Below, one piece after another: positions 3,412 to 58,406 of a stretch of 64,000 bases of DNA. The DNA is from Candidatus Altiarchaeales archaeon ex4484_2 (GTDB taxonomy: Archaea; Altiarchaeota; Altiarchaeia; IMC4; QMZM01): assembly GCA_002254565.1 (NCBI GenBank), contig NJEG01000015.1, forward strand, positions 4,726-68,725, in the 5' to 3' direction. The position numbers and the translations under genes are program-made. The number at the start of each line of letters is the position of its first letter. Within the stretch, counting starts at the first letter, position 1. The notes beneath the pieces were generated by a model that searched no databases, was not told the origin of the DNA, and worked only from the letters and a program-made list of their open reading frames with translations.

Positions 3412-5142
3412 ATGGATTCAAACAAAATGATATTACCTGTCTTCATTGTTCTTGTTTTTTCAGCGACAGCATACTCAACAAGCCTTGAAAAAGAATGGTC
3501 TATAAACGTTAAAGGCAGTATACAGGACCTAATTGTTGCGGATGTTGATGGAGATAACATCCCAGAGATTGTTTTTTTCTTTAAGAACAACAACATCCAT
3601 AGAGATGACATCCTCTACGCACTGGATAATAAAGGAGGAGAGAGATGGCACCTGAATCTTGGTGATATAGAATCGGTTTATGTATCTGATTCGATGATTG
3701 AAGACCCCAGCACCCGAATCTTGGTAAGCTATGGGAAAACCAGCGAGGGGATAGAACAAGGCCATCTACTGATTCTGGATGGCGGAGGAAGGGAGGTATT
3801 GAGGTACCCCACCCCCGCGTTAGGTTCCACGCCCGTGATGTACAAGATGGAATCCGTTGACATAAACGGGAACGGATATAATGAGTTGATTGGAGGAACA
3901 AGGAAGGGTGTTTACGCCATAAACGACAGATTTACAGGGGAATTATGGACTTCAATGATCGGCCAACCTATAAGAGACTTCATACTCGAGGATATAGACT
4001 GCGACGGAATAACAGACATCATCTCTGAATCGCTTGGCGTAATCTATAATACAAACATCAAAAACGGCAGCCTTAGCTGGAAGATATCGACGGGAGATTA
4101 TATCAGCTCAGGGGATAATCAAACGACGGTAGAGAAAGATAAGGTTGTTGAAATACTTAAGGTGGGTGATGTCAGCCCACACCCTCACAAGGAGATAATC
4201 GCGGTCACATCCATGAATATATTCTTCATATACAACAGCAAGGGCAGTCTTATAAGTATTGGAGGAGACAGCAACGCAATACGGAGATATGTCAAAAACT
4301 ACAGCAATTACACCATCCATGAAGCAATAAGCGGCTACGGGAAAATAACAGCTTTAAGCCTCTATGACTTCAATGAAAACAGCCTCCAGGAATTTATTCT
4401 GGGAACAACCTCAGGGGTATATATCTGGGATATCCTCTCAGGTGAACACCAATTCAAAAACATTGGAGAAGTAAAGGCCATACAGAAAAGCCCTGATGGA
4501 CGGATATTTATATTAACAGAAAATGCAATCCATGAATTAGGCATAAACCAGGAGATAATAGAAACATATAGTTTAGGTGACAGCTATCAAAGAATCCATA
4601 TAGCTGACATTGATGGAATAGGTGGCCCAGAATTCATTTTGATAAAAGACAGGGATATATCAGTCTACTCAAAAAAAGAAACCCCAACAACAACCCTGGC
4701 TACGACAACCACAACGACCCGGGAAACCCCAACAACAACCCTGGCTACGACAACCACAACGACCCGGGAAACCCCAACAACAACCCTGGCTACGACAACC
4801 ACAACAGAACCGGAACACAAAAAGGAGGGAATAGACGCCTCAGATGTGCTGCTTGCGCTGATATCTATTGCATTGATTCTGGTGATTGCCAGACACAGTG
4901 TGGAAATCCTGAAAAAAAGAAGGAAGGTAAAGAAACCTGAGAAAGAGGAGGGTAAAAAAGAAATCGATATGCCAACGGAGGATGAGCTGAAGGCCTTGGA
5001 AAAGGAGATAGAAAAAAGAAAAAGAGAATACACAATTAAGAAATGGAAAGAGAAGGAATTAAGTGATAAAGAAAGAGAGCTAAGAGAGGAATGGGAGAAG
5101 AACGTAGATATAGTTGAAGAAGAAAAGAGAAAAAAGAGGTAA
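3412..5142 (+). CDS. surface protein: signal peptide, FG-GAP/VCBS-like beta-propeller repeats, Thr-rich linker, TM helix, K/E-rich cytoplasmic tail
   Basis: Repeated DxDGDG-type motifs (DVDGDNIPEIV, DINGNGYNELI, DIDCDGITDII, DIDGIGGPEFI). ETPTTTLATTTTTTR occurs 3 times. The hydrophobic segment LLALISIALILVIA is followed by KKRRKVKK. Confidence 0.6.
   Translation: MDSNKMILPVFIVLVFSATAYSTSLEKEWSINVKGSIQDLIVADVDGDNIPEIVFFFKNNNIHRDDILYALDNKGGERWHLNLGDIESVYVSDSMIEDPSTRILVSYGKTSEGIEQGHLLILDGGGREVLRYPTPALGSTPVMYKMESVDINGNGYNELIGGTRKGVYAINDRFTGELWTSMIGQPIRDFILEDIDCDGITDIISESLGVIYNTNIKNGSLSWKISTGDYISSGDNQTTVEKDKVVEILKVGDVSPHPHKEIIAVTSMNIFFIYNSKGSLISIGGDSNAIRRYVKNYSNYTIHEAISGYGKITALSLYDFNENSLQEFILGTTSGVYIWDILSGEHQFKNIGEVKAIQKSPDGRIFILTENAIHELGINQEIIETYSLGDSYQRIHIADIDGIGGPEFILIKDRDISVYSKKETPTTTLATTTTTTRETPTTTLATTTTTTRETPTTTLATTTTTEPEHKKEGIDASDVLLALISIALILVIARHSVEILKKRRKVKKPEKEEGKKEIDMPTEDELKALEKEIEKRKREYTIKKWKEKELSDKERELREEWEKNVDIVEEEKRKKR
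4678..4805 (+). repeat. 45-bp perfect tandem repeat (~2.8 copies) encoding the Thr-rich linker
   Basis: The unit gaaaccccaacaacaaccctggctacgacaaccacaacgacccgg sits at 4678-4722 and 4723-4767, with a partial third copy. Confidence 0.95.
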
Positions 5143-6917: not shown

Positions 6918-7673
6918 ATGGCTCGAATAATAGGTGTTGTTTCAGGGAAAGGCGGGGTCGGAAAGACTACACTAGTTTCTAATCTAGGTGTTGCTCTAGC
7001 TCAGGAGGGTGCAGATGTAGCAATCGTTGACGCAAATCTTACTGGCGCAAATCTGGGTTTACATTTTGGGTTGATTTCCTACCCTGCATCAATACACGAT
7101 GTGATGAAAGAAAACGCTGCTCTGCCGGATGTTATGTACAAGCACCCAAGCGGGGTGGATATTATACCTTCCTCGCTCTCCATGGAGGATGTAACCACCG
7201 AACCAAAGAACATAAGAGCAGCATTCGATGAACACCTAAGTGACAAAGACTTTGTTCTCGTAGACTGCGCTACAGGACTGGACAGGGAGACACTAACGGC
7301 ACTGGAAATGTGCGATGAAGTTTTGCTGGTAACACATCCCGAGCTTCCTACCATCTCCGATGCCCTGAGAACCAAAACCCTGGCTAAAGAATACAATAAA
7401 AAGCTTTTGGGTGTGGTATTGAACAGAGTAAATAGGAGGGATGAGATGAAGATTGAAAACGTGGCATCGTTTTTCGATTTACCTGTAATAGCAGCTATAC
7501 CAGAAGACAGCTCCATAAGAAAGTCTATTGAGGCGAAGAACCCCGTAATCCTGAATAACCCAAACCACAAGGTGAGCAGGGAAATCAGGAAAGTATCTGA
7601 TTACCTCTCAGGCAAGGCAAGAAGACGGGAGAAAACCCTTACGGACAAGATAATTGACCTGTTTCGGTGGTAA
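6918..7673 (+). CDS. minD: MinD-type (ParA/MinD superfamily) ATPase
   Basis: Deviant Walker A GKGGVGKTT and archaeal MinD-like length and sequence. Confidence 0.8.
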   Translation: MARIIGVVSGKGGVGKTTLVSNLGVALAQEGADVAIVDANLTGANLGLHFGLISYPASIHDVMKENAALPDVMYKHPSGVDIIPSSLSMEDVTTEPKNIRAAFDEHLSDKDFVLVDCATGLDRETLTALEMCDEVLLVTHPELPTISDALRTKTLAKEYNKKLLGVVLNRVNRRDEMKIENVASFFDLPVIAAIPEDSSIRKSIEAKNPVILNNPNHKVSREIRKVSDYLSGKARRREKTLTDKIIDLFRW

Positions 7674-7720: not shown

Positions 7721-8341
7721 ATGGCTAAATTAATGGTTGAACTAGACGATATGCAGAAAGACATTCTCAAGGAAGTCAGCAACATAAGCTCTGGTAAAGC
7801 GCTCACCAGCCTAGAGAAATATGTCAAATCCCAGATAGTAGAGGGGCTACCCTTCATGGATATTATGATGGTTGGTAGCATACCCAACTTCCTAGGAAAC
7901 GGTAAAAAAGAGATTATTGGTATATGCTCTACCGTGGAAGGAGACCTCAACGGTAAGGTCATGACAATCTTTCCCCTTAAAAGCGCTCTGGTTCTCGTTG
8001 ACCTGGCATATGAAAAAGATATCTACTCCACGAAAGAGCTGACGGAAAAAGAAAATAACCTCATAAAGATGATGGGTGAGTCACTGTTTAGCTCCTACAT
8101 AGATGCTCTTACAGAGCTCTTGGAGATAAATGTATCACACGGGGAATCGAAGGTGCTGAAGAGTACTGGCGATAAGATAATAAAAAAGTCAGAGATGGGA
8201 AACGGTGATGAATTCGCCCTCGTACTCGAAACAGATTTCTCGGTTCCCGACTATAACTTTGAGGGGGACTTTCTTTTAATAATAAGCACCACATCAATGG
8301 ATATGCTCCTAACGTCCGTGCAAAAGAAATTCGGTTTCTAG
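7721..8341 (+). CDS. cheC: CheC-family CheY-P phosphatase
   Basis: The first-half motif D-x3-E-x2-N (DILKEVSN) followed by ISSGKALTSL is present. The second repeat is degenerate. Confidence 0.7.
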   Translation: MAKLMVELDDMQKDILKEVSNISSGKALTSLEKYVKSQIVEGLPFMDIMMVGSIPNFLGNGKKEIIGICSTVEGDLNGKVMTIFPLKSALVLVDLAYEKDIYSTKELTEKENNLIKMMGESLFSSYIDALTELLEINVSHGESKVLKSTGDKIIKKSEMGNGDEFALVLETDFSVPDYNFEGDFLLIISTTSMDMLLTSVQKKFGF

Positions 8342-9405
8342 GAGCTGATAAGCTCTAAAATTTTTTTGGATATTTCAGGTAAAGACACGACTTCATCAAC
8401 TGCACCCGATTCAAAGGCTGACTTAGGCATGCTTGATATTATCGAGGTGTCCTCGTCCTGTGATATAGTCCGCCCCCCCATCCTCTTAATCTGTTTCATG
8501 CCTTCTGTGCCATCATGTCCCATCCCCGTTAAAATCACGCCAACAACCTTCCCAGTGTATGCCTGCGCAACAGAAGACATGGTTACATCAATAGAGGGTC
8601 TCATTCCATTAACCATGGGACCCTTATCCAGCCTCATAATCCTGTGAATTCCATCATTTACCTTCTCCTTTTTTACCTTGAGATGGAAGCCTCCCGGAGC
8701 GATAAAAACCTTTCCCTTAGTCACCATTTCACCATCTCTGGCTTCCACCACGGGCAGAGAAGTCAGGGAATCAAGCCACGACGCGAGAGTCAGGGTAAAT
8801 TTGGGGGGCATGTGCTGCACAACAATCACTGCGGCATCTATTTTTGTTGGTAGTTTGGACATAATCTTGCAAAGTGTTTTCGGGCCACCAGTAGAGGCAC
8901 CTATCACCACAACATTCTCCGCCTCCACAGCCAACGGCTTCTTTTTCTTTTTCTTGGAAGACTGCTTGCACTTGGATAGTTCCGTAGACGAAAACATATT
9001 CGCTTTAGCAGACGACTTGATCTTTTTAATCAACTCCTCCTGAGCGTCCTTCATCCGGAAAGAAACCCGCCTCCTATCAGGTTTAGTCACGAAATCAACC
9101 GCCCCAGAGTTCAGGCTCTTGATCGTTTCCTCCGCCCCATCATAGGTGAATGCGCTTACCATTATCACCGGCTTAGGGTCTACCTTCATTATATGTTTTA
9201 ATGCGGTTATGCCATCCATCAAAGGCATATCGAGGTCCATGGTAACAACATCAGGGTCTAGAGAAGAAACCTTGGCTAAGGCTTCCCTGCCATCAGCTGC
9301 TGTACCTACAACCTCTATCTCAGGGTTAGAGGATAACATATCAGAAATAATCTTCCGCATAAAAGCTGAGTCATCAACAACCAAAACCCTGATCTTTTTC
9401 ATCAT
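8338..9405 (-). CDS. cheB: chemotaxis response regulator protein-glutamate methylesterase
   Basis: An N-terminal receiver domain (VLVVDDSAFMR...DLDMP) plus the CheB methylesterase domain (IGASTGGP, GMGHDG). Confidence 0.9.
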   Translation of the reverse strand: MMKKIRVLVVDDSAFMRKIISDMLSSNPEIEVVGTAADGREALAKVSSLDPDVVTMDLDMPLMDGITALKHIMKVDPKPVIMVSAFTYDGAEETIKSLNSGAVDFVTKPDRRRVSFRMKDAQEELIKKIKSSAKANMFSSTELSKCKQSSKKKKKKPLAVEAENVVVIGASTGGPKTLCKIMSKLPTKIDAAVIVVQHMPPKFTLTLASWLDSLTSLPVVEARDGEMVTKGKVFIAPGGFHLKVKKEKVNDGIHRIMRLDKGPMVNGMRPSIDVTMSSVAQAYTGKVVGVILTGMGHDGTEGMKQIKRMGGRTISQDEDTSIISSMPKSAFESGAVDEVVSLPEISKKILELISS

Positions 9406-9603
9406 AATAATATCTCAAATATTCTGAGTAATAAATAAACGACATATACCTATAAACCAGATAACGAAGCCTGAAACCTTAAGAAACCACTTAAGAGCAC
9501 CAACAACAGGATTAACTACTACGATTTAGTGTGATAGTATAACCTGCATAATACATAGAAAAAGAGATATGATTCACTGAATATACTCTTTTTTCTGTTG
9601 CAT

Positions 9604-10263
9604 TTATTTTTTTGGGGTAGACTTCTTGCTCTTCCCGCCAGATCTCTTTTTCTTCACAGCCTTCTTCACAGCCTCAGGCTTCACAGCCTTCTTCACAGCC
9701 TCAGGCTTCACAGCCTTCTTCACAGCCTCAGACTCCGTGAGATCTTTGACCCCTGCCGTCTTACCATGGTCTTCGGCTACAATCAAACCCCCCCACTCCT
9801 CCTCAGAGAATAATTCATCAACATCCAGGAGGATGATAAACCTCTCCTGATCTTCCAGTATCACAATCCCATGGATGTAATCAGCATGTATATTCTTTGT
9901 TATTATATCCGGCGGCTCCTTAATGTGGTCGCTATCCACCCTCAGGACATGGGATATGTCATCCACTATAACCCCAAGCATCCGACCCCCAGTCTCCACC
10001 AGAATTATGTGGGTGCCATCTTCATCCCTGCCCAGATTAAACCTCTCCTTGAGGTCAACGACAACAACAATCTTACCCCTGACGTTGATGATGCCCTTAA
10101 TAACAGCAGGCGTTCTAGGCACAGGAGTGATGCTGGACATCCTAATTATTTCCCGTACCTTATGTATCTCGAATGCGTGTTCCTCATCACCCAACTTGAA
10201 CACCACAATCTGAACTTCCTCGCCTGACTTCTTCTCATCCGTCTCATAATTTGCTAGAGCCAT
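9604..10263 (-). CDS. cheW: CheW coupling protein with a C-terminal Lys/Ala/Pro-rich repeat tail
   Basis: CheW domain (VVFKLGDEEHAFEIHKVREI...INVRGKIVVVVDL), followed by AVKKAVKPE 3 times and then KKKRSGGKSKKSTPKK. Confidence 0.85.
   Translation of the reverse strand: MALANYETDEKKSGEEVQIVVFKLGDEEHAFEIHKVREIIRMSSITPVPRTPAVIKGIINVRGKIVVVVDLKERFNLGRDEDGTHIILVETGGRMLGVIVDDISHVLRVDSDHIKEPPDIITKNIHADYIHGIVILEDQERFIILLDVDELFSEEEWGGLIVAEDHGKTAGVKDLTESEAVKKAVKPEAVKKAVKPEAVKKAVKKKRSGGKSKKSTPKK
9652..9731 (-). repeat. 27-bp tandem repeat (~3 copies) encoding the CheW basic tail
   Basis: The plus-strand unit cttcacagccttcttcacagcctcagg repeats at 9652, 9679 and 9706. Confidence 0.9.
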
Positions 10264-10373: not shown

Positions 10374-11834
10374 TCAGATATCGGTAATTTCCGAGATTAT
10401 CCCAACAACCTGCTGCGCTCCACTGGACTGCTCCTGCGCACCAGCTGAAAGCTCCCCCACCTGCGTTGAAACATCAGCTATGGAGTCACTTATCTGCTCA
10501 AGAGACTTCAAGGCTCTGCCAACAACCTCCGTTCCCTCCCTCACCTTTAACGTGCTTTTCTCCATACTATCCACGCTCTTGCTTGTCGAATCCTGCATTC
10601 CCTCAATAAGCCCGGATATTTTATCAGCTGCCTCAGCGCTTGACTCAGCGAGCTTTCTAACCTCATCGGCAACAACAGCGAATCCTCTGCCCGCATCACC
10701 TGCTCTCGCAGCCTCTATAGTAGCGTTTAACGCCAGAAGGTTGGTTTGCTCGGCTATATGCGTTATGGTGCTGACAATCTTCCCAATCTCCTGACTCTTC
10801 TCGTTGAGGCCGGATATGCTTGCAGCAGACTCATCAACACTGTTTCTGATTTCAGCCAGACTCTCCAAACCCTTACCGGCGCTTTCACCACCCTCTTGTG
10901 CGACCTTGTTCACTTCGCTGGTTTTCTCCGCTGCCGACTCTATGCTCCTAGCCATCTGGTCTAATGTGGATGACATGTCCACAACCGTCTTCCTAGCCTC
11001 TTCCGTCTTCTCGGACTGCTCCTGAGAACTCTTGGATATTCCCTGCGTGGTCTTTGATATCTCCTCAGCCATGTCACTGACCTGCTTAGCGTTATTTAAT
11101 AACTGCTCCCCACCAGTTGCTAATGATGTGGAGGTGTCGGTTATTCCAGCAATTAAATCTGTGAAGTCTCCAATCATAACGTTTATGTTCTGTGCCAGAC
11201 TCTTAATGTATGAATTCTTGATGTCTTCATTGGCTCTTAGAGTTAAGTCCCCGGCTCCTGCGCCCTGGGTCACATCAATAATCGAGGCTATTCCGGTAGC
11301 CAGTTCCTTGTTGGTTTCCTCTATCAGCTCGACCTTCTCCGCTAGGCTTTGAGCAACGAGGTTGATGTCTTCTCCCAGCATCTTCACCTCAGGAACATCT
11401 ATGGCATCGGTGTCTGCTCTGGCTTTATAGTCTCCCTCCGATACCTTAGCGAGAGTGATGGAGAGTTTATTAATTCCCTCCTTCATGCTCCTGGAATTAT
11501 GTAACAAAGTCGCTGCGGCATCATTAATGTCCATGCCCAGCATCTTCACCTCAGGAACATCTATCTCGTTAACATCCACCTGGCTCTCATATTTGCCATC
11601 GATTATCTTAGCCAGGACAGCGGAGAGTTTGCTGACCCCAATCTCTATATCCTTTTTATTTTTAAGCAACTGTTTCTCCTTATTTTTCAGTTCAGTTATG
11701 TCGGTTACATACTCCAATGCCCCAATGATGTTCCCATCATCATCCTTAATCGGCGCGCCAGTGTATCTAATCGGCAGATCCTCTCCCGTTGCGCGAGAGA
11801 TGGTTTCAGCAGTGAACGTATCATCTTTGTCCAT
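10374..11834 (-). CDS. methyl-accepting chemotaxis protein, C-terminal part: second half of a PAS domain, two HAMP-like modules, signalling domain. No TM helix.
   Basis: Conserved MCP hairpin region ([36 protein letters not shown]). The frame stays open upstream of the ATG to ~11879 ([19 protein letters not shown]...). Confidence 0.85.
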
Positions 11835-11842
11835 AGCCTGCT

Positions 11843-12436
11843 TCAGACGACATTCATCAGTACCATAATGGGAGTAGGTACCCGGTTGAGGTAGTCCACC
11901 TTCTCGCCGGCGTCCTCAAGCATTTTCTCAAGTGTCTCCGAGATAACGTCTAAGGCAATATTGATGTCCTCACCCAGCATCTTCACCTCAGGAACATCTA
12001 TCTCGTTAACATCCACCCTGACATCATAATCACCACTAGCTACCTTAGCCAGAGTATTAGATAGTTTATTAACCCCCTTCTGTATCTCATAAGTGTTGTT
12101 CTCTAAGACCTTGACGGCGTCGTTGATGTCTTCACCCAACATCTTCACCTCAGGAACATCTATCGCGTCAACATCCACCTTAGCCTTATAGTTCCCGGTA
12201 GCTATCTTAGCTAAAATGTTGGAAATTCGATTAATCTCTACATCAAGCTTTCTCTTTTCTGTAGCTGCTTTTTTATCTGATTTTTTATCCATTTTCTCCC
12301 CTAATTGCTCATTGGTTTCGGAGGCGGGAGCCTTATCTTTCCCTTCTATGCTCTCCCCTCGTTTATCAGATTCTTCCCTCTCAAAGAACTTTTTTCTACC
12401 CTTCTTTTCACCCTTCTTCTTAGCCATTTTATGCAA
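11843..12436 (-). CDS. N-terminal fragment of the same MCP: basic tail, two HAMP-like modules, start of a PAS domain
   Basis: [16 protein letters not shown] tail. Modules share [14 protein letters not shown] with the downstream ORF. It ends in [10 protein letters not shown], the start of a PAS domain, 8 nt before the next ORF and in a different frame. Confidence 0.7.
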
Positions 12437-12519: not shown

Positions 12520-12738
12520 CTAATCAGCCGTTAGGCTTTCATCAGTGCTACCATCTGGTAGAAGAGTAATTGGTGCTTTCTTATCCTTCAGAGACAACTG
12601 GTATCGAGCACAAGCCTCGTAATTACCCTTACAGTAGTGTCTGGTCCAGATTTGCTTTGCAGCATCCCCACTGAATTTCTCAAATATCGGGCACTCATCC
12701 AACTTAGGGCAGTTTTCCGCCATAGCATTCACCTCCAC
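12520..12738 (-). CDS. small conserved-looking 4-Cys protein (72 aa), function unknown
   Basis: Cysteine pattern CPKLDECPIFEKF...YCKGNYEACARY. It sits in the same orientation between parA-like and the MCP. Confidence 0.5.
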   Translation of the reverse strand: MEVNAMAENCPKLDECPIFEKFSGDAAKQIWTRHYCKGNYEACARYQLSLKDKKAPITLLPDGSTDESLTAD

Positions 12739-12785: not shown

Positions 12786-13628
12786 TCATGTTCCATCCAG
12801 CAACCCGCTGCTAATCTCCTTGTATATGCGGTTTATGCCATGCCCCGGGTTGTAGTAACACAAGGGCAGGCCCGCTGACTGGGCATTATATATCTCGGGA
12901 GAGTAGGGTATCACATGCAGGTTTTCCCCAAATGACTTGTTTATTGATAAAAAAATCTGCACATTATCCTTCACATCCAACGACGGATGCCTGTAGGAGG
13001 ATATAAGATTTGACAACATACGAGAGAACCTGTAGGATAATGAATCCTGGGGCACGGTTAATGTTACAGCATGGATGTTTATGTCAGAGCTAAGCTCCTT
13101 CTCTATGTCACCAAGCAAGGTGGTGAAGTCCCTGATACTTTCCATGGTGAAGGCTCCAGTATCCAAGGGGAGGATAATACGGTCAGCAGCATAAACCGAA
13201 TTAATAAGAAAGTAACCATAGCTTGGGGGGGTATCCACCAAAACAAAATCATAGAAACCCCTTATTCCATCCATTGAATCCCTCAACACAGTAAAGGGAT
13301 TGTCTGCCTTATGTATCTGGGTCAGTATCCCTGATAAGTCCAGGGTTGCTGGAGCTATATCCAGATTTTTTACCTCAGTGGTCAGAATCACATCCTCCAG
13401 CAGGGTTTTTTCATCGCCAGTGCATCCACTCAACAGGACGTCATACATGCAGGCATCTATCTCCTCGCCATCTAAACCCAAAGCTGATGTTGCATTACCC
13501 TGAGGATCTGAATCAACAACCAAAACATTCCTGTTATTCCTCGCTAACTCACCAGCAAGATTCACACACGATGTTGTCTTCCCCGTGCCGCCTTTATGGT
13601 TAGCGAAAACAACACACTTACCCTCCAT
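12786..13628 (-). CDS. ParA/Soj-family ATPase
   Basis: Walker A NHKGGTGKTT and the VVDSDPQGNAT motif. Confidence 0.8.
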   Translation of the reverse strand: MEGKCVVFANHKGGTGKTTSCVNLAGELARNNRNVLVVDSDPQGNATSALGLDGEEIDACMYDVLLSGCTGDEKTLLEDVILTTEVKNLDIAPATLDLSGILTQIHKADNPFTVLRDSMDGIRGFYDFVLVDTPPSYGYFLINSVYAADRIILPLDTGAFTMESIRDFTTLLGDIEKELSSDINIHAVTLTVPQDSLSYRFSRMLSNLISSYRHPSLDVKDNVQIFLSINKSFGENLHVIPYSPEIYNAQSAGLPLCYYNPGHGINRIYKEISSGLLDGT

Positions 13629-13784: not shown

Positions 13785-14147
13785 ATGAGTAAAATATTAA
13801 CCGCGGACGATTCTGTATTTATGAGGAAGATATTGATTAAGATACTCAACAAGATGGGACATAAAGATATCATTGAGGCAGAGAACGGAGATGATGCGCT
13901 TAGGATATTCAAGGAGGAAACGCCCGATCTTGTCTTGCTCGATATTGTCATGAAGGGTAAATATGGAATAGACGTACTAAAGGACATAATGAAAATCAAC
14001 CCTGATGCTAGGGTAATCATGGTTTCTGCAGTGGGACAGGAGAGTATATTACATGAGGCCAAGGATATAGGAGCGAAGGATTTCATAACCAAGCCCTTTA
14101 AGGAAGAAATGGTAATCGAGACAATAAATAGGGTTCTTAAGTCATAA
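13785..14147 (+). CDS. cheY: chemotaxis response regulator CheY
   Basis: A 120-aa single receiver domain (ILTADDSVFMR, LVLLDIVMKG, KDFITKPF). Confidence 0.9.
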   Translation: MSKILTADDSVFMRKILIKILNKMGHKDIIEAENGDDALRIFKEETPDLVLLDIVMKGKYGIDVLKDIMKINPDARVIMVSAVGQESILHEAKDIGAKDFITKPFKEEMVIETINRVLKS

Positions 14148-14195: not shown

Positions 14196-15782
14196 ATGAC
14201 TGAAGACATGCGGGAGTATTTAGATTTATATCTAAGCGAAGCCGAAGACCTGCTGCAGTCGCTGAATGAATCCCTTCTAGAGTTCGAGAAAACCCCCGAA
14301 AAGAAGGAGTACATAGATGAAATACAAAGATGTGTTCACACCCTGAAAAGCAGCTCTGCCTCTATGGGATTCAACCAGATTTCTGAACTATCCCATTGCA
14401 TGGAGGATGTGTTGGGAGGTATGAAGAAGGATGAGATTGAGATAAACGACTATGTTGTTGATATAATATTCGAGTGCTTTGATGTCTTGGAGAGAGGCGT
14501 GGACAACGTCAGGAAAGGTAAAGAGGAGCCTGACGTATCCAACGTCCTCAAGCATCTGGATAAGATAAAGGAGGGTAGGATTGATTCACTGGAGGAGGAT
14601 GTTGAGGGTGGAGAGCTGGCTGATAAACCCCATACACTGAAGACTGTGCACTCCATAAAGGTTAACGTAGAGAGTCTGGATAAACTCCTCGAGCTGGTTG
14701 GTGAACTATTGATTGCCAAGATGAGACTCCAGAACATCAACAGCCATATAGATGATGCGGACCTTGATGAGTTAACAACACTCCTTAGCCGGTTGATAGA
14801 GGATATACAGTACCAGATCACCGAGGCCAGGATGATTCCCGTCGACCACATATTCTCTCGATTTCCCCGGATGGTGCGGGATATCGCGAAAAGAGAGGGT
14901 AAAAGGGTTAGTTTCGTAATAAAGGGCAGTGAAATCAAGCTGGACCGGACCATACTAGACAAGATAGGTGAGCCCCTGATCCACCTTCTGAGGAATGCAG
15001 TAGACCATGGGATAGAGATGCCTGAGGAGAGAAAAGATAGGGGTAAGCAGGAAACGGGAACCATAAAGCTCACAGCCAGAAGGGAGAGGAACAAGGCAGT
15101 AATAGAAATCGAAGACGATGGAGAAGGCTTTGATGCAGAGGCTATAAAAGATGTAGCTGCTAGAAAGGGGTTGTATTCAAGGGAACAACTTAATTTGATG
15201 GCCGAGAAGGATCTATTTAATCTGCCTTTCCAGCCCAACTTCAGCACCTCCAAAAAGGTCACGAACGTCTCGGGCAGAGGGGTTGGGTTGGATGTGGTTA
15301 AAACCAGGATAGAGGAACTCAACGGCACAGTAAAAATGGAGTGTGAAAGAGACAAGGGCACCAGGTTCACTATCACCCTGCCTTTAAGCCTTGCCATAAT
15401 AAAGAGCCTGCTGATTGATGTATGCGATGGAACCTACGTAATCCCCATCTCTAACGTGATGCGGATACTGCCCTCCAGGGACGCCCACATAAGACATATT
15501 GAAGGAAGCGAGTGCATTGTATTAGACAATGAGACAATACCCATCATCAGAATCAAGGATAAATTCAATATCAAAGGAGAAAGCCCCGACAAAAATTTTG
15601 TAATTATCATAGAAAAAGGTAGCGAAAAAATCGGGCTGGTGGCCGACAGGATAGTGGGACAGCAGGAGATAATGATAAAGAACCTGGACAAAGAGCTTAG
15701 AGAGTTGAAGGGCATAGCTGGAGCCAGCATCCTAAGCGACGGGAATCTTGCTTTGGTCATCGACATTTCAGGGATAACATGA
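14196..15782 (+). CDS. cheA: chemotaxis histidine kinase CheA (short form, no obvious P2 domain)
   Basis: Hpt site HTLKSSSASMGF, an HATPase_c domain (LLRNAVDHGIE, GRGVGLDVV), and a C-terminal CheW-like domain. Confidence 0.9.
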   Translation: MTEDMREYLDLYLSEAEDLLQSLNESLLEFEKTPEKKEYIDEIQRCVHTLKSSSASMGFNQISELSHCMEDVLGGMKKDEIEINDYVVDIIFECFDVLERGVDNVRKGKEEPDVSNVLKHLDKIKEGRIDSLEEDVEGGELADKPHTLKTVHSIKVNVESLDKLLELVGELLIAKMRLQNINSHIDDADLDELTTLLSRLIEDIQYQITEARMIPVDHIFSRFPRMVRDIAKREGKRVSFVIKGSEIKLDRTILDKIGEPLIHLLRNAVDHGIEMPEERKDRGKQETGTIKLTARRERNKAVIEIEDDGEGFDAEAIKDVAARKGLYSREQLNLMAEKDLFNLPFQPNFSTSKKVTNVSGRGVGLDVVKTRIEELNGTVKMECERDKGTRFTITLPLSLAIIKSLLIDVCDGTYVIPISNVMRILPSRDAHIRHIEGSECIVLDNETIPIIRIKDKFNIKGESPDKNFVIIIEKGSEKIGLVADRIVGQQEIMIKNLDKELRELKGIAGASILSDGNLALVIDISGIT

Positions 15783-16936: not shown

Positions 16937-17431
16937 CTATTCTTTTCTCAGGCAAATCCCATCCCTGCAGCCGTAACGGCAGTTGTAGTAGATAGATTTT
17001 ATTTCACCTTTCTCGCAATAATACTCCCTTAACATATCCCCCTCACATATGTCGTTGACCACCCTCCCGTCCCTGTGGATTACTGTGCCATGTATGTGGT
17101 ATTCTCTGCCCCCATCAGTGTCTCTACACTCCAGAAGGGTTGTTGTTGTAGAGGATGTTGTGGTGGGTGAGGTTGTTGTAGAGGATGTTGTGGTGGGTGA
17201 GGTTGTTGTAGAGGATGTTGTGGTGGGTGAGGTTGTTGTAGTTATGTAGTAGATTGTTGTGGTATATGCTGTTGACGTGGAGATGGTGGGAGCAGTTGAT
17301 GTGGTGGAAATGCTAAAAGAGGATGTTGTGGATGAGGACTTGGGGGGTTGTTCAGGAGTCTCCACGATACAACCAGTAAACAACAATAGAGATAGTGTAA
17401 GTACCAGAATGATGTGGTGATTTTTTTCCAT
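16937..17431 (-). CDS. secreted, possibly lipid-anchored protein with a Thr/Ser-rich repeat and a C-terminal Cys-rich domain
   Basis: Signal/lipobox-like LLLFTGC, TTSPTTTSST 3 times, then a CRDTDGG...DICEG...YYCEKG...CRYGCRDGIC domain. The start is taken at the MEKNHH methionine. Confidence 0.55.
   Translation of the reverse strand: MEKNHHIILVLTLSLLLFTGCIVETPEQPPKSSSTTSSFSISTTSTAPTISTSTAYTTTIYYITTTTSPTTTSSTTTSPTTTSSTTTSPTTTSSTTTTLLECRDTDGGREYHIHGTVIHRDGRVVNDICEGDMLREYYCEKGEIKSIYYNCRYGCRDGICLRKE
17138..17242 (-). repeat. 30-bp tandem repeat (~3.4 copies) encoding the Thr/Ser-rich linker
   Basis: The unit ggttgttgtagaggatgttgtggtgggtga is perfect at 17171-17200 and 17201-17230, with variant copies flanking. 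Confidence 0.9.
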
Positions 17432-17460
17432 GGATATATATGGATTTATCCGGTAATTAA

Positions 17461-18780
17461 TCACATCCCTATGTTACCGCCCATACGCTTCATCAATCTG
17501 CGGAGCTTTCTCTCATCGCCCATGGACTTCATCATCTTCTTCATTTTCTTATAGTATACTAATAGTTCCCTGACCTCCTCTGGCTTGCTTCCGCTGCCTT
17601 CAGCTACACGCCCCAGGCGGTCTTTTTTGATGATGGACGGATCCTCCATCTCCTTCCCGGTCATGGAGTCCATGATAACCTTCCACCTTTGCATCTTACC
17701 CTCCTGCATATCAAGCATTTCCTTGGGGATTTTAGCCTGAAAAGGCATCAACTCCATAATCTTCTTCATGGAGCCCATCTTCCCAACCTGCTCTATCTGG
17801 GTGTAGACCTCGTTGAGTGTGAATTTCCCTGACATAATCCTCTTAGCGGTTTCCTCGTCTAAGTCAGCCTCCTGAGCTCTCTCCAACAAACCCTCAATAT
17901 CCCCGAAACCAATAAGCCGGGAAACAAAACGCTCTGAATCGAATTCCTCGAAGTCCTCAACATGCTCTCCAACCCCTACGAAATAGACAGGAGCTCCTGT
18001 AGCAGCGCATGCGGAGATTGCGCCCCCGCCCTTGGCTGAACCATCCAGCTTAGTCAGGATAACCCCGTCCACCTGGCTATGCTTCCTGAAGGCCTTCGCC
18101 TGCTCTCCAGCCTGCTGTCCGGTGGTGGCATCCAGGACCAGAAAAGTCTTATCCGGCTTTATTTCAGAACATATCCTACCTATCTCGTCCATCAACTCCT
18201 TGTTCATTTTATGCCTTCCCTCGGAGTCGATGATGATAACACCCTCATCCTTGAATTCCTTCAAGCCGTTTTTTATTATGGAAAGAGAGTTTTTCCCCTC
18301 AGGGCTGCCGTAAAATGGGACGTTTATCTGCTCCGACAGCTGCCTCAGCTGATCGAATGCAGCAAGCCTGAAGGTGTCGGCACAAATCAGTTTAGGGTTT
18401 AAGCCCTTCTTTTTGATGTATCTGGCAAGCTTCGCGGCAGTGGTGGTCTTACCGGAGCCCTGGGTCCCCACCAGAAGGATTCTATCGTTTTCATTTAGCG
18501 GGATTTTCTCCCCGGCACCCAGTAGTTTAACCAGCTCATCATAGGTTATCCTTATAAGATTCTCTCCCCTGGACAAGGCCCCCGGGGGTTTCTCCAGCAA
18601 ACCTCTTTCTTCAATATTCTTTGAGAGCGCAAACACCAGCTCCACATTAACATCAGAGGAGATAAGAGTCTTCTGTATGTCCTTCGTGTACTCCTTCACT
18701 GTTTTCTTGTCTACAACAACCGCCTTCCTCAGACTCGTTACAGCACCCTGCAAACCATCCCTGAGCTTATCTAAAACCAT
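17461..18780 (-). CDS. srp54: signal recognition particle protein SRP54
   Basis: NG domain (GTQGSGKTTTAAKLA, DTFRLAAFDQL, TKLDGSAKGG) and a Met-rich M domain. Confidence 0.95.
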   Translation of the reverse strand: MVLDKLRDGLQGAVTSLRKAVVVDKKTVKEYTKDIQKTLISSDVNVELVFALSKNIEERGLLEKPPGALSRGENLIRITYDELVKLLGAGEKIPLNENDRILLVGTQGSGKTTTAAKLARYIKKKGLNPKLICADTFRLAAFDQLRQLSEQINVPFYGSPEGKNSLSIIKNGLKEFKDEGVIIIDSEGRHKMNKELMDEIGRICSEIKPDKTFLVLDATTGQQAGEQAKAFRKHSQVDGVILTKLDGSAKGGGAISACAATGAPVYFVGVGEHVEDFEEFDSERFVSRLIGFGDIEGLLERAQEADLDEETAKRIMSGKFTLNEVYTQIEQVGKMGSMKKIMELMPFQAKIPKEMLDMQEGKMQRWKVIMDSMTGKEMEDPSIIKKDRLGRVAEGSGSKPEEVRELLVYYKKMKKMMKSMGDERKLRRLMKRMGGNIGM

Positions 18781-18839: not shown

Positions 18840-20114
18840 ATGAACAGTCTACATATAGGTCTTGTTTATGCATTATGGTTTTTTGTGACCTTCTTTTTCA
18901 TGGTCAAGAACAGGGATGAATTCTTTAAAGAACCTAAATCGCTAAGTGAAAAAGAAAAGATAACAATACTAGTTCCCGCATTCAACGAAGAAGAAACCAT
19001 AGCCGACACGATAGAATCCATTCTCAGGCTTGAGTATCCCAAAAACCTGCTGGAGATTATCGTGGTAAACGACGGCTCCAGCGACAGATAGAATCCATTC
19101 TCAGGCTTGAGTATCCCAAAAACCTGCTGGAGATTATCGTGGTAAACGACGGCTCCAGCGACAGGACAGGGGAGATAGCGAAGAGGTACTCCGATAAAGG
19201 GAGTATAAGGTTAATAGGGAATCCATGAAGCGAGAGGGGAGTTGATTGCTACAATAGACGCTGACACCGTTATAGAAGGTGATACATTAGAGAAGGTGTG
19301 CGGCTACTTCAGGGAGGAGGATATTGGAGCGGTTATCGTAAGGGTTAGGGTAAAAAACCCCAGTAACTGGCTGGAGAAAATCATCGAGATGGAATATAAC
19401 ATGGGCCTAGGATTCTACCTCAAACTACTCTCCTTCCTCAACTGCCTCTACCTGACACCCGGACAGTTCAGCATATACCGGAAAAGGGTTTTAGAGGATT
19501 TAGATGGCTTCGACGTAAACAACATAGTTGAGGATACTGAAATAGCCTACAGGATGCAGAAAAAGGGATACCGGATAGCCTGCTGCCTCTCAGCTTACGT
19601 TTACACCAAGGTGCCCAACAACGTGCGCTCCTTCTACTACCAGAGAAGGAGATGGTACTCTGGAACCATACAAACAATACTAAAACACAGGGACGTGTTC
19701 TTCAACAGAGAGCTGGGCAACTTCGGGATGTTCTTCATGCCAGTGAACTATGGAGGAATCATCATCGGGACACTACTTTTCCTCTCCACGATATACCTGA
19801 CAGCCCAGACAGTATATGATTATATCATATACTACAGCCTCATAAACTTTGACATCATAGGCTCGACCGTAAACATCATACAGACCGCTGAAATAGACCC
19901 CCTGATGATAAGCATATTCTACTTCCTGGGCATAAGCCCCTTCATAATGAACGCCCTAATCAACTTCTACGCTCTGAGAAAGATGGGTGAAAGCTTCAGG
20001 GAATCCTTCTTCGGATTCATATGCTTCCTGTTCTTTTTCATACCATACAACACCCTCTGGATTATCTGTGCCTATGTAGTAGTAAGAAACAAGCAAATAA
20101 AATGGCGAGAGTAG
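18840..20114 (+). pseudogene. family 2 glycosyltransferase with a multi-TM C-terminus, disrupted by a 77-bp tandem duplication and a second frame break
   Basis: The N-terminus ILVPAFNEEETI...VVNDGSSD runs into a stop created by the duplication. The frame breaks again at ~19215-19240, where the GKA.ALN segment is missing. It then continues as ARGELIATIDADT...EDTEIAYRMQKKGYR. Confidence 0.75.
19011..19164 (+). repeat. exact 77-bp tandem duplication (2 copies) inside the GT2 gene
   Basis: 19011-19087 and 19088-19164 are identical (atagaatccattctcagg...ggctccagcgacag). Confidence 0.95.
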
Positions 20115-58246: not shown

Positions 58247-58406
58247 GGGGCTGTGGGGTAACCAGGCATCCTAGCGGGCTCCAGAATCAATGGAGCGCTG
58301 ATTTCCCGCAGGGGAGAGATGACGAAAAACAGGTCAGAGACCGATAAGTCTTGAAGAAACTGGATGGAGTGACCTGCCGATGGGGGTTCAAATCCCTCCA
58401 GCCCCA
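58247..58406 (+). tRNA. tRNA-Trp (CCA) with an ~87-nt intron at the canonical 37/38 position (intron ~58285-58371)
   Basis: Exon 1 is GGGGCTGTGGGGTAACCAGGCATCCTAGCGGGCTCCAG. Exon 2 is ACCTGCCGATGGGGGTTCAAATCCCTCCAGCCCCA. The anticodon stem GCGGG/CCTGC forms only after intron removal. Confidence 0.85.

Follow-up and report, generated by a model that had tools for sequence, protein, structure and literature searches.

The DNA analysed here is a stretch of 64,000 nucleotides (the window; positions 4,726 to 68,725 of contig NJEG01000015.1, assembly GCA_002254565.1) from Candidatus Altiarchaeales archaeon ex4484_2, and its chemotaxis (che) locus encodes a coupling protein, CheW, that ends in a long lysine-rich tail. 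The source genome is a metagenome-assembled genome (MAG) of 1.40 Mb, in 53 contigs and 83% complete. The cheW open reading frame (ORF), recognised from the ORF list together with Pfam, NCBIfam and proteome searches, lies at 9604-10263 on the (-) strand and encodes 219 amino acids (aa), the translation ending in ...DLTESEAVKKAVKPEAVKKAVKPEAVKKAVKKKRSGGKSKKSTPKK*. It gives the single CheW match in the organism's own proteome, and is hence the sole CheW of the 1.4-Mb genome. The Pfam family PF01584 (CheW) covers residues 18-155 over positions 1-137 of a 138-position profile (E = 3.4e-37), and the NCBIfam CheW model matches the 219-aa protein with E = 2.9e-26, under its equivalog cut-off. The gene sits among mcp, cheA and other che genes in a conserved synteny, and the protein is a bona fide CheW.

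The CheW domain (aa 18-155; 9799-10212, (-) strand) is strongly acidic by charge count, residues 1-155 having a net charge of -13, and is 89-94% identical to that of the closest orthologues. It is preceded by an acidic N-terminus of only 17 aa and followed by a helix (aa 156-172, SEEEWGGLIVAEDHGK...; 9748-9798, (-) strand), which was delimited from an AlphaFold2 model and the alignment of orthologues. The model, built on a shallow alignment of 7 sequences, shows the CheW fold and a helix at residues 154-180, with a block-mean predicted local distance difference test score (pLDDT) of about 80 for residues 151-170 and of about 43 for residues 171-180. In the alignment, the helix motif S-E-x-E-[WL]..AE.HG is kept across the clade.

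Beyond the helix, residues 173-219 (9607-9747, (-) strand) form a tail that is predicted to be disordered by its pLDDT (below 50 throughout), its lack of a Pfam match and its divergence, and that consists of a repeat spacer and a basic tip. The spacer is encoded by three perfect 27-bp tandem units at 9652-9731 on the (-) strand, for which Tandem Repeats Finder reports a period of 27, 3.0 copies, 100% matches and 0 indels. An earlier note on this DNA had described a normal CheW domain followed by a lysine-rich tail of tandem repeats, and both the description and its coordinates for the repeat proved exact. The residues after the domain read ...SEEEWGGLIVAEDHGKTAGVKDLTES-EAVKKAVKP-EAVKKAVKP-EAVKKAVK-KKRSGGKSKKSTPKK, the third unit closing with K instead of P because the array amounts to 2.96 copies and runs into the tip. 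The tip itself, KKKRSGGKSKKSTPKK (aa 204-219; 9607-9654, (-) strand), carries a net charge of +9 by translation and charge count. It is composed of K, R, S, G, T and P only, with no hydrophobic or aromatic residue, and closes with S/T-P-K-K.

Lysine accounts for 43% of the last 30 aa of CheW versus a proteome mean of 6.7%, and the net charge of +9 over the last 16 aa ranks third among the 1383 ORFs of the genome (mean 0.4, standard deviation 2.36). The lysine enrichment of the CheW C-terminus therefore exceeds chance. That lysine-rich C-terminal tails are a general trait of this proteome was ruled out, since only about 10 of the 1383 ORFs carry one. Four of the nine others encode nucleic-acid binders, namely uS4 (C22:838-1455), eL24 (C43:4758-5132), Rpo7 (C6:5834-6430) and an NYN-domain nuclease (C19:13946-14479). 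An origin of the tip by poly-A slippage was likewise ruled out, the lysine codons being interspersed with codons for S, G, T and P. Two antisense ORFs at 9598-9813 and 9626-9850 on the (+) strand were rejected as a low-complexity mirror of the repeat within a well-supported gene, and Rfam gave no RNA element at the site of the tail.

Histone H1, AlgP and HupB, to whose tails the earlier note likened this one, carry 50-150 aa of acid-free KPAA/AKKA/PAKK repeats on DNA-binding domains. The CheW tail is similarly rich in K, A, P and V, repetitive and disordered, and its tip has an S/T-P-K-K-like ending. In contrast to those tails, it comprises three 9-aa units that each bear a Glu (27 aa in all) and a 16-aa tip, and it is attached to a signalling adaptor. 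The tail alone found no family in Pfam, and a family-model search of it detected no homology to the H1, AlgP or HupB tails. The resemblance thus holds for composition, and stops at the acidic residue of each unit, the small number of units and the missing family-model match.

A second, independent assembly (ENA ERZ2433807 NODE_254, of 72,681 bp, where the contig of the window has 68,946 bp), which is about 99.8% identical, contains the same CheW with the same repeat; the tail is therefore not an assembly artefact. An orthologue of 84% identity (L006, L007) also has three 27-bp units at this site, in diverged form, implying that the three-unit array predates the split of the two lineages. From this comparison the array is old, and was homogenised lately in the present lineage by slippage or conversion. 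The recent expansion inferred in the earlier note from the perfection of the repeat thus holds as a recent homogenisation here, while the array itself is old. Three units were counted in either lineage and in each of the two assemblies of this organism, and no copy-number variation was seen between these assemblies. A metagenome scan recovered one locus only, identical to L006.

According to the earlier note, its idea would be undermined if all close orthologues lacked the tail; the tail is present in them: P0002 to P0007 and P0144 all have a charged C-terminal tail with a basic tip. What is conserved is architecture, not sequence. P0003 shares 89% identity with this CheW over the domain and 30% over the tail. 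For the tails of P0003 to P0007 taken together the identities are 21-43%, and that of P0002, the closest orthologue, reaches 70%. In P0002 to P0006 the body of the spacer measures 35-75 aa with a net charge of about 0 to -8. The spacers of the orthologues are neutral or acidic, cannot be aligned and often consist of lineage-specific repeats, such as three units of about 18 aa in P0005 and AEKEKAEKEAKEK units in P0006. Over the last 16 aa, the net charge is +5 to +14 in P0002 to P0006; in P0007 and P0144, which are more distant, it is +3. All that separates the tips of the two closest alleles, P0001 and P0002, is R>K, S>R and P>R, each a change towards or among basic residues, and two synonymous changes, whereas the spacer shows charge-reversing changes (K>E). 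Because the tips stay basic while the spacers differ, the conserved feature is a basic tip on a flexible spacer and not EAVKKAVKP as such. By these alignments, the terminal polybasic tip is the conserved, and probably the functional, element of the tail.

The wider distribution was followed in 80 GTDB loci holding the nearest CheWs. About 70 of the 80 CheWs are bare, with at most 16 residues after the domain, as expected from the view that CheWs normally lack extensions. The long tails of this sample occur in archaeal MAGs only: in Altiarchaeales, in an uncultured archaeon (the P0005 group) and in MAGs labelled Woesearchaeota, Nanoarchaeota, Thermoplasmatota and Methanosarcinales. The 86-aa tail of a Woesearchaeota protein ends in ...KPKKVKKKVR, that of a Thermoplasmatota protein in ...KLKKNKK and that of a Methanosarcinales protein in ...KPAKKAVKKK; a lysine-rich tip also closes the Nanoarchaeota CheW. 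Taken together with the close orthologues, the CheWs of these four groups of MAGs combine a charged spacer with a basic tip of +3 to +14. Other relatives (P0008 to P0011, L011 and G020) have short or non-basic tails. An all-against-all representative search was dominated by CheW proteins with 3-5 domains and contributed little on the tails of single-domain proteins. Tandem CheW proteins of 3-5 domains are also the best-scoring library relatives (P0025, P0029, P0042, P0043, P0053, P0091 and P0113), and several multi-CheW proteins end in a low-complexity linker and a lysine-rich tip, as in P0043 (...APAKAKAPAKAPAKKKKPKTKKRKSLKKADE). Within the phylum Altiarchaeota, CheW is present in 5 of 61 species genomes. 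In the literature, no description was found of a lysine-rich or C-terminally extended CheW.

The tail could be without specific function, a tolerated low-complexity product of slippage whose lysine richness reflects mutational or compositional bias. The genome contains 120 tandem arrays, 93 of them in frame with a period divisible by 3 and 16 of them near-perfect inside ORFs; it therefore habitually forms young in-frame minisatellites, and less weight can be given to the perfection of the CheW repeat. The fast evolution of the tail and the relatives with short or non-basic ones would also fit a neutral appendage. Against this, a basic tip recurs at the end of the spacer where the domains share only 48-59% identity, and lysine-rich tips also close the multi-domain CheW proteins. 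Moreover, conservation is higher in the tip than in the spacer and the substitutions within the tip keep its charge, while the rarity of such C-termini in the proteome and the mixed lysine codons, which form no simple poly-A run, do not point to a compositional bias. Hence a tail devoid of function is considered unlikely.

Besides the CheW repeat, the window contains two further young in-frame arrays, and several repeats were recorded in it and in the rest of the genome. At 4678-4813 on the (+) strand, within the ORF at 3412-5142, a 45-bp repeat (3 copies, 97% identical) encodes ETPTTTLATTTTTTR three times; these units form the Thr-rich stalk of an FG-GAP-repeat surface protein with a C-terminal transmembrane segment and a K/E-rich tail. 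A perfect 30-bp repeat of 3.3 copies at 17142-17241, in the ORF at 16937-17464 on the (-) strand, encodes a T/S/P-rich segment of a 175-aa protein without Pfam match. A 77-bp direct repeat (19004-19164; 2.1 copies, 98% identical), whose period is not a multiple of three, lies just upstream of the ORF at 19242-20114. KEPVKSV units (21-bp period, 5-8 copies) and KEPEVEPG units that resemble the CheW spacer occur at C44:18720-19229 and C48:1-2450, and because they are found at contig ends they probably break the assembly.

Upstream of cheW on the (-) strand, a single mcp gene (10374-12436; Pfam and proteome search) encodes a methyl-accepting chemotaxis protein (MCP) without transmembrane segment. 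It is preceded by a small Cys-rich ORF of 67-72 aa without family match (12520-12738) and by a gene for a Soj/ParA-type P-loop ATPase of 280 aa (12786-13628), with Pfam matches to AAA_31, CbiA and MipZ. The best PDB matches of this ATPase are ParA and Soj (E = 1e-33 to 1e-22). The Soj/ParA-like gene belongs to the same operon as cheW, from which it is separated by the small ORF and mcp; the order ParA, MCP, CheW is kept in L001, L003, L005, L006 and L007, that is, in every related locus that is long enough, and the Cys-rich ORF is kept as a 67-aa gene in L005, L006 and L007. Downstream of cheW lies cheB (8338-9405, (-) strand; Pfam), encoding a receiver domain and a methylesterase. Divergent from this parA-mcp-cheW-cheB unit are cheY (13785-14147) and cheA (14196-15782) on the (+) strand, which also carries cheC (7721-8341; Pfam and NCBIfam) and a gene for an archaeal MinD-type ATPase (6918-7673; NCBIfam minD_arch, 225.7 bits, above the cut-off). 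The cheR gene is located just upstream of the window. Elsewhere in the window, an Rfam tRNA match of 36.7 bits that extends over 160 nucleotides (58247-58406, (+) strand) suggests an intron-containing tRNA gene.

The genome thus has one CheW, one CheA and one MCP, and the array proteins are strongly acidic, with net charges of -48 for the MCP, -25 for CheA and -13 for the CheW domain. Neither archaellin (PF01917) nor CheF (PF04283) was found in the five CheW-bearing genomes of Altiarchaeota (G000, G014, G015, G016 and G020), two of which are at least 90% complete. The MinD-type gene is conserved beside che genes in L001, L005 and L094. Its product ends in ...DKIIDLFRW, a possible amphipathic, membrane-targeting end. 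In Haloferax, MinD4 positions chemosensory arrays (bioRxiv 10.1101/2020.04.03.021790).

In this assembly, mcp is split into 11843-12436, with a basic N-terminus and HAMP-like units, and 10374-11834, with a PAS remnant, HAMP-like units and the signalling domain. Compared with L005 (629-2998), one lesion lies within the PAS domain, where about 112 bp are missing and the frame is shifted (VPTPIMV|TDECRLKQ), and the other, in the last 130 nucleotides, combines a deletion of about 84 bp with three 1-nucleotide indels. L005, a contig of 99.8% identity, holds an intact mcp of 789 aa that ends 2 nucleotides before cheW. The broken gene is either a strain-level pseudogene or an artefact of the MAG consensus. 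The N-termini of the soluble MCPs share a basic motif, GRKxF[FY]xK (window 11843-12436, (-) strand; L001 1140-2714; L003 5223-7994), one N-terminus with a motif of this type reading ..SRKPGRKAFFKK. By its sequence, it is a candidate for the partner peptide that activates ParA. The C-termini of the MCPs of relatives are likewise lysine-rich.

The CheW tail could itself be the ATPase-activating partner peptide of the ParA-type ATPase, linking the array to ParA and not directly to DNA, as a C-terminal equivalent of the disordered, positively charged N-termini of ParP, TlpT, ParB and McdB. The proteins that partner ParA/MinD ATPases, also in chemotaxis clusters, do so by way of a disordered terminus with positive charge (PMC10241942), and the partner of ParC, ParP, is a CheW-type protein (PMC5706961, PMC10241942). 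ParA, which is acidic (-16), shares the operon with cheW in all Altiarchaeales loci of sufficient length. In a bacterial lineage (P0012 to P0015, L095), a CheW with a conserved basic N-terminal peptide and a K/A/P-rich linker is encoded directly after a ParA-like gene. In four loci (L078 7129-10480, L079 6028-9757, L085 6875-10522 and L095 5235-6834), the ParA-like gene is followed by a protein that starts with MA[IL]GKN[LV][KR]K[ED]. This protein is a soluble MCP starting with MA[IL]GKNLKKEKV in Bacteroidota, and in the other bacterial lineage it is a CheW with the N-terminus MALGKNVKKDKLIP and then a long AKKPAAKK-type linker. Judging from these starts, the MA[IL]GKN-type N-terminus seems to be a ParA-partner peptide that MCP and CheW have in common and that has switched between the two.

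However, all known partner peptides are N-terminal, and the GRKxF[FY]xK motif of the MCP fits the role better than the CheW tail, whose tips are alike in composition only and have no common motif. In addition, lysine-tipped CheWs exist in archaeal loci without a ParA/MinD gene, while the ParA-linked CheWs of Bacteroidota are bare. Across the 80 loci, the tail did not track ParA-like genes, archaeal MinD-like genes or soluble receptors beyond the clade of the Altiarchaeales, and for that reason the tail as a ParA partner is held to be distinctly unlikely.

Precedents for CheW-type proteins in array positioning were compared. The known partners of ParA-like ATPases include the CheW-like ParP of Vibrio and Pseudomonas and the receptor TlpT, which acts with PpfA in Rhodobacter sphaeroides (PMC5706961, PMC10241942). 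The Altiarchaeales protein resembles them in combining a CheW-type domain with a disordered charged extension, in having a ParA-like ATPase in its locus and in the logic of array positioning. Unlike theirs, which are N-terminal and contain a conserved interaction peptide, its extension is C-terminal and conserved in composition only. An identity with ParP was ruled out, as the 17 aa before the CheW domain leave no N-terminal extension. CheV is another protein with a C-terminal addition on a CheW domain, in its case a receiver domain. An identity with CheV was also ruled out, since there is no Response_reg match and the addition is a disordered tail and not a folded receiver domain.

A closer parallel comes from FrzCD of Myxococcus xanthus, in which a positively charged N-terminal tail of 30 aa attaches to DNA irrespective of its sequence, with the nucleoid serving as scaffold of the Frz array (PMC5716589). 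The N-terminus of FrzCD varies in sequence between species and is always positive, and deletion of residues 7-27 abolishes both DNA binding and cluster formation (PMC5716589). Like it, the CheW tail is a short, positive and disordered appendage on a core array protein of a cytoplasmic-receptor system, with charge kept and sequence variable, and sequence-independent DNA binding is its proposed mode. The two differ in that the FrzCD tail is the N-terminus of a receptor and has been shown to bind DNA, whereas this one is carried by the C-terminus of CheW behind a 30-aa repeat spacer, in an archaeon; the neighbouring soluble MCP separately has a basic N-terminus. By analogy, the CheW tail may work like the FrzCD tail, although protein, terminus and domain of life are all different. 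Binding of the tail to DNA or another polyanion, suggested in the earlier note, is a reasonable inference for which the closest documented precedent is the FrzCD tail (PMC5716589), and not histone H1.

On this analogy, the CheW tail is tentatively read as an electrostatic tether of the cytoplasmic array to a polyanion, most likely nucleoid DNA, a reading that seems quite possible and still falls short of probable. The flexible tail would stick out from the baseplate that CheA and CheW form in a cytoplasmic array, the sole receptor of which lacks membrane segments. By multivalent contacts, the lysine tips would keep the strongly acidic array attached to a polyanionic scaffold, for which nucleoid DNA is the likeliest candidate; because the proteins of the array are so acidic, they would need a basic appendage in order to come close to DNA. 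Once bound to the nucleoid, the array would be positioned or partitioned by the Soj/ParA-type ATPase, whose gene lies two genes upstream and whose activating peptide would more likely be the conserved basic N-terminus of the MCP than the CheW tail. The spacer would matter for its length and flexibility only, and would for that reason evolve by repeat turnover. The anatomy of the tail, its predicted disorder, its conserved architecture, its rarity in the proteome and its gene context are observed here, while DNA as the partner and positioning as the role are what we infer. Direct binding to a polyanion is favoured by the conservation of composition only, the lack of a hydrophobic anchor, the acidity of the assembly and the likeness to the lysine-rich tails of uS4, eL24, Rpo7 and the NYN nuclease. 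The third rank of the tip for positive charge, the low pLDDT of the tail, the single soluble MCP with its basic N-terminus and the Soj/ParA-type ATPase in a syntenic operon also speak for the tether.

The polyanion could also be lipid, in which case the tip would bind anionic membrane lipids and bring the soluble array to the cytoplasmic membrane. Acidic lipids are known as possible ligands of polybasic patches, and since the receptor has no membrane segments, a membrane-proximal array would need another anchor. An archaeal MinD-type ATPase with a possibly amphipathic C-terminus also flanks the locus. However, no orthologue has a hydrophobic, aromatic or amphipathic element in its tip, a composition that is typical of DNA-binding tails rather than of membrane-targeting sequences. 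Furthermore, the tail is kept in relatives with transmembrane receptors, despite the CheW baseplate lying at the membrane-distal end of such receptors in the architecture of the array. Recruitment to the membrane is therefore regarded as highly improbable.

Alternatively, the tail could act inside the array by contacting acidic surfaces of the MCP, CheA or a neighbouring CheW, leading to a coacervate-like stabilisation or condensation of the lattice or tuning the coupling of the kinase. The strongly negative charge of these partners is consistent with such contacts, which would account for the retention of the tail whether the receptors are transmembrane or soluble, and lysine-tipped tails are also found on the multi-CheW scaffold proteins. 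Nonetheless, no precedent was found in the searched literature, and most CheWs are bare in spite of equally acidic partners, which makes a role within the array very unlikely.

Several observations weigh against the electrostatic tether to the nucleoid. The tailed CheWs of Woesearchaeota, Nanoarchaeota, Thermoplasmatota and Methanosarcinales adjoin transmembrane MCPs, and no ParA- or MinD-like gene lies within 10 kb of the lysine-tipped cheW genes of these four lineages. Such tails are thus not confined to arrays that are cytoplasmic and linked to ParA, and these proteins are the main weakness of the proposal. Conversely, the loci of Bacteroidota with the same order of ParA, soluble MCP and CheW have bare CheWs, so that a ParA-organised array can do without the tail. 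One Woesearchaeota CheW (L011) has an acidic tail of 230 aa without basic tip. The richness of the genome in in-frame low-complexity repeats means that part of the tail may be neutral. Finally, the receptor gene is disrupted in this assembly, and the system may be decaying in the strain.

As a rule, it is the membrane that organises chemosensory arrays. The Frz system of Myxococcus is the only documented DNA-scaffolded array and was called unique in a 2025 paper (PMC12077210). Against this background, the stronger proposition, that the coupling protein and not the receptor carries a histone-tail-like DNA anchor, scaffolding an archaellum-less array on the nucleoid, is put forward as speculative and rather doubtful. 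Should the tail be neutral, it would be a low-complexity appendage of the common sort, in a genome where coding minisatellites abound. If the proposition is true, lysine-tipped CheWs, in MAGs labelled Woesearchaeota, Nanoarchaeota and Thermoplasmatota and in multi-domain CheW scaffolds, would mark widespread and so far unrecognised nucleoid-associated arrays. The CheW tail could thereby show how the cytoplasmic arrays of archaea are localised, and whether scaffolding on the nucleoid is more general.

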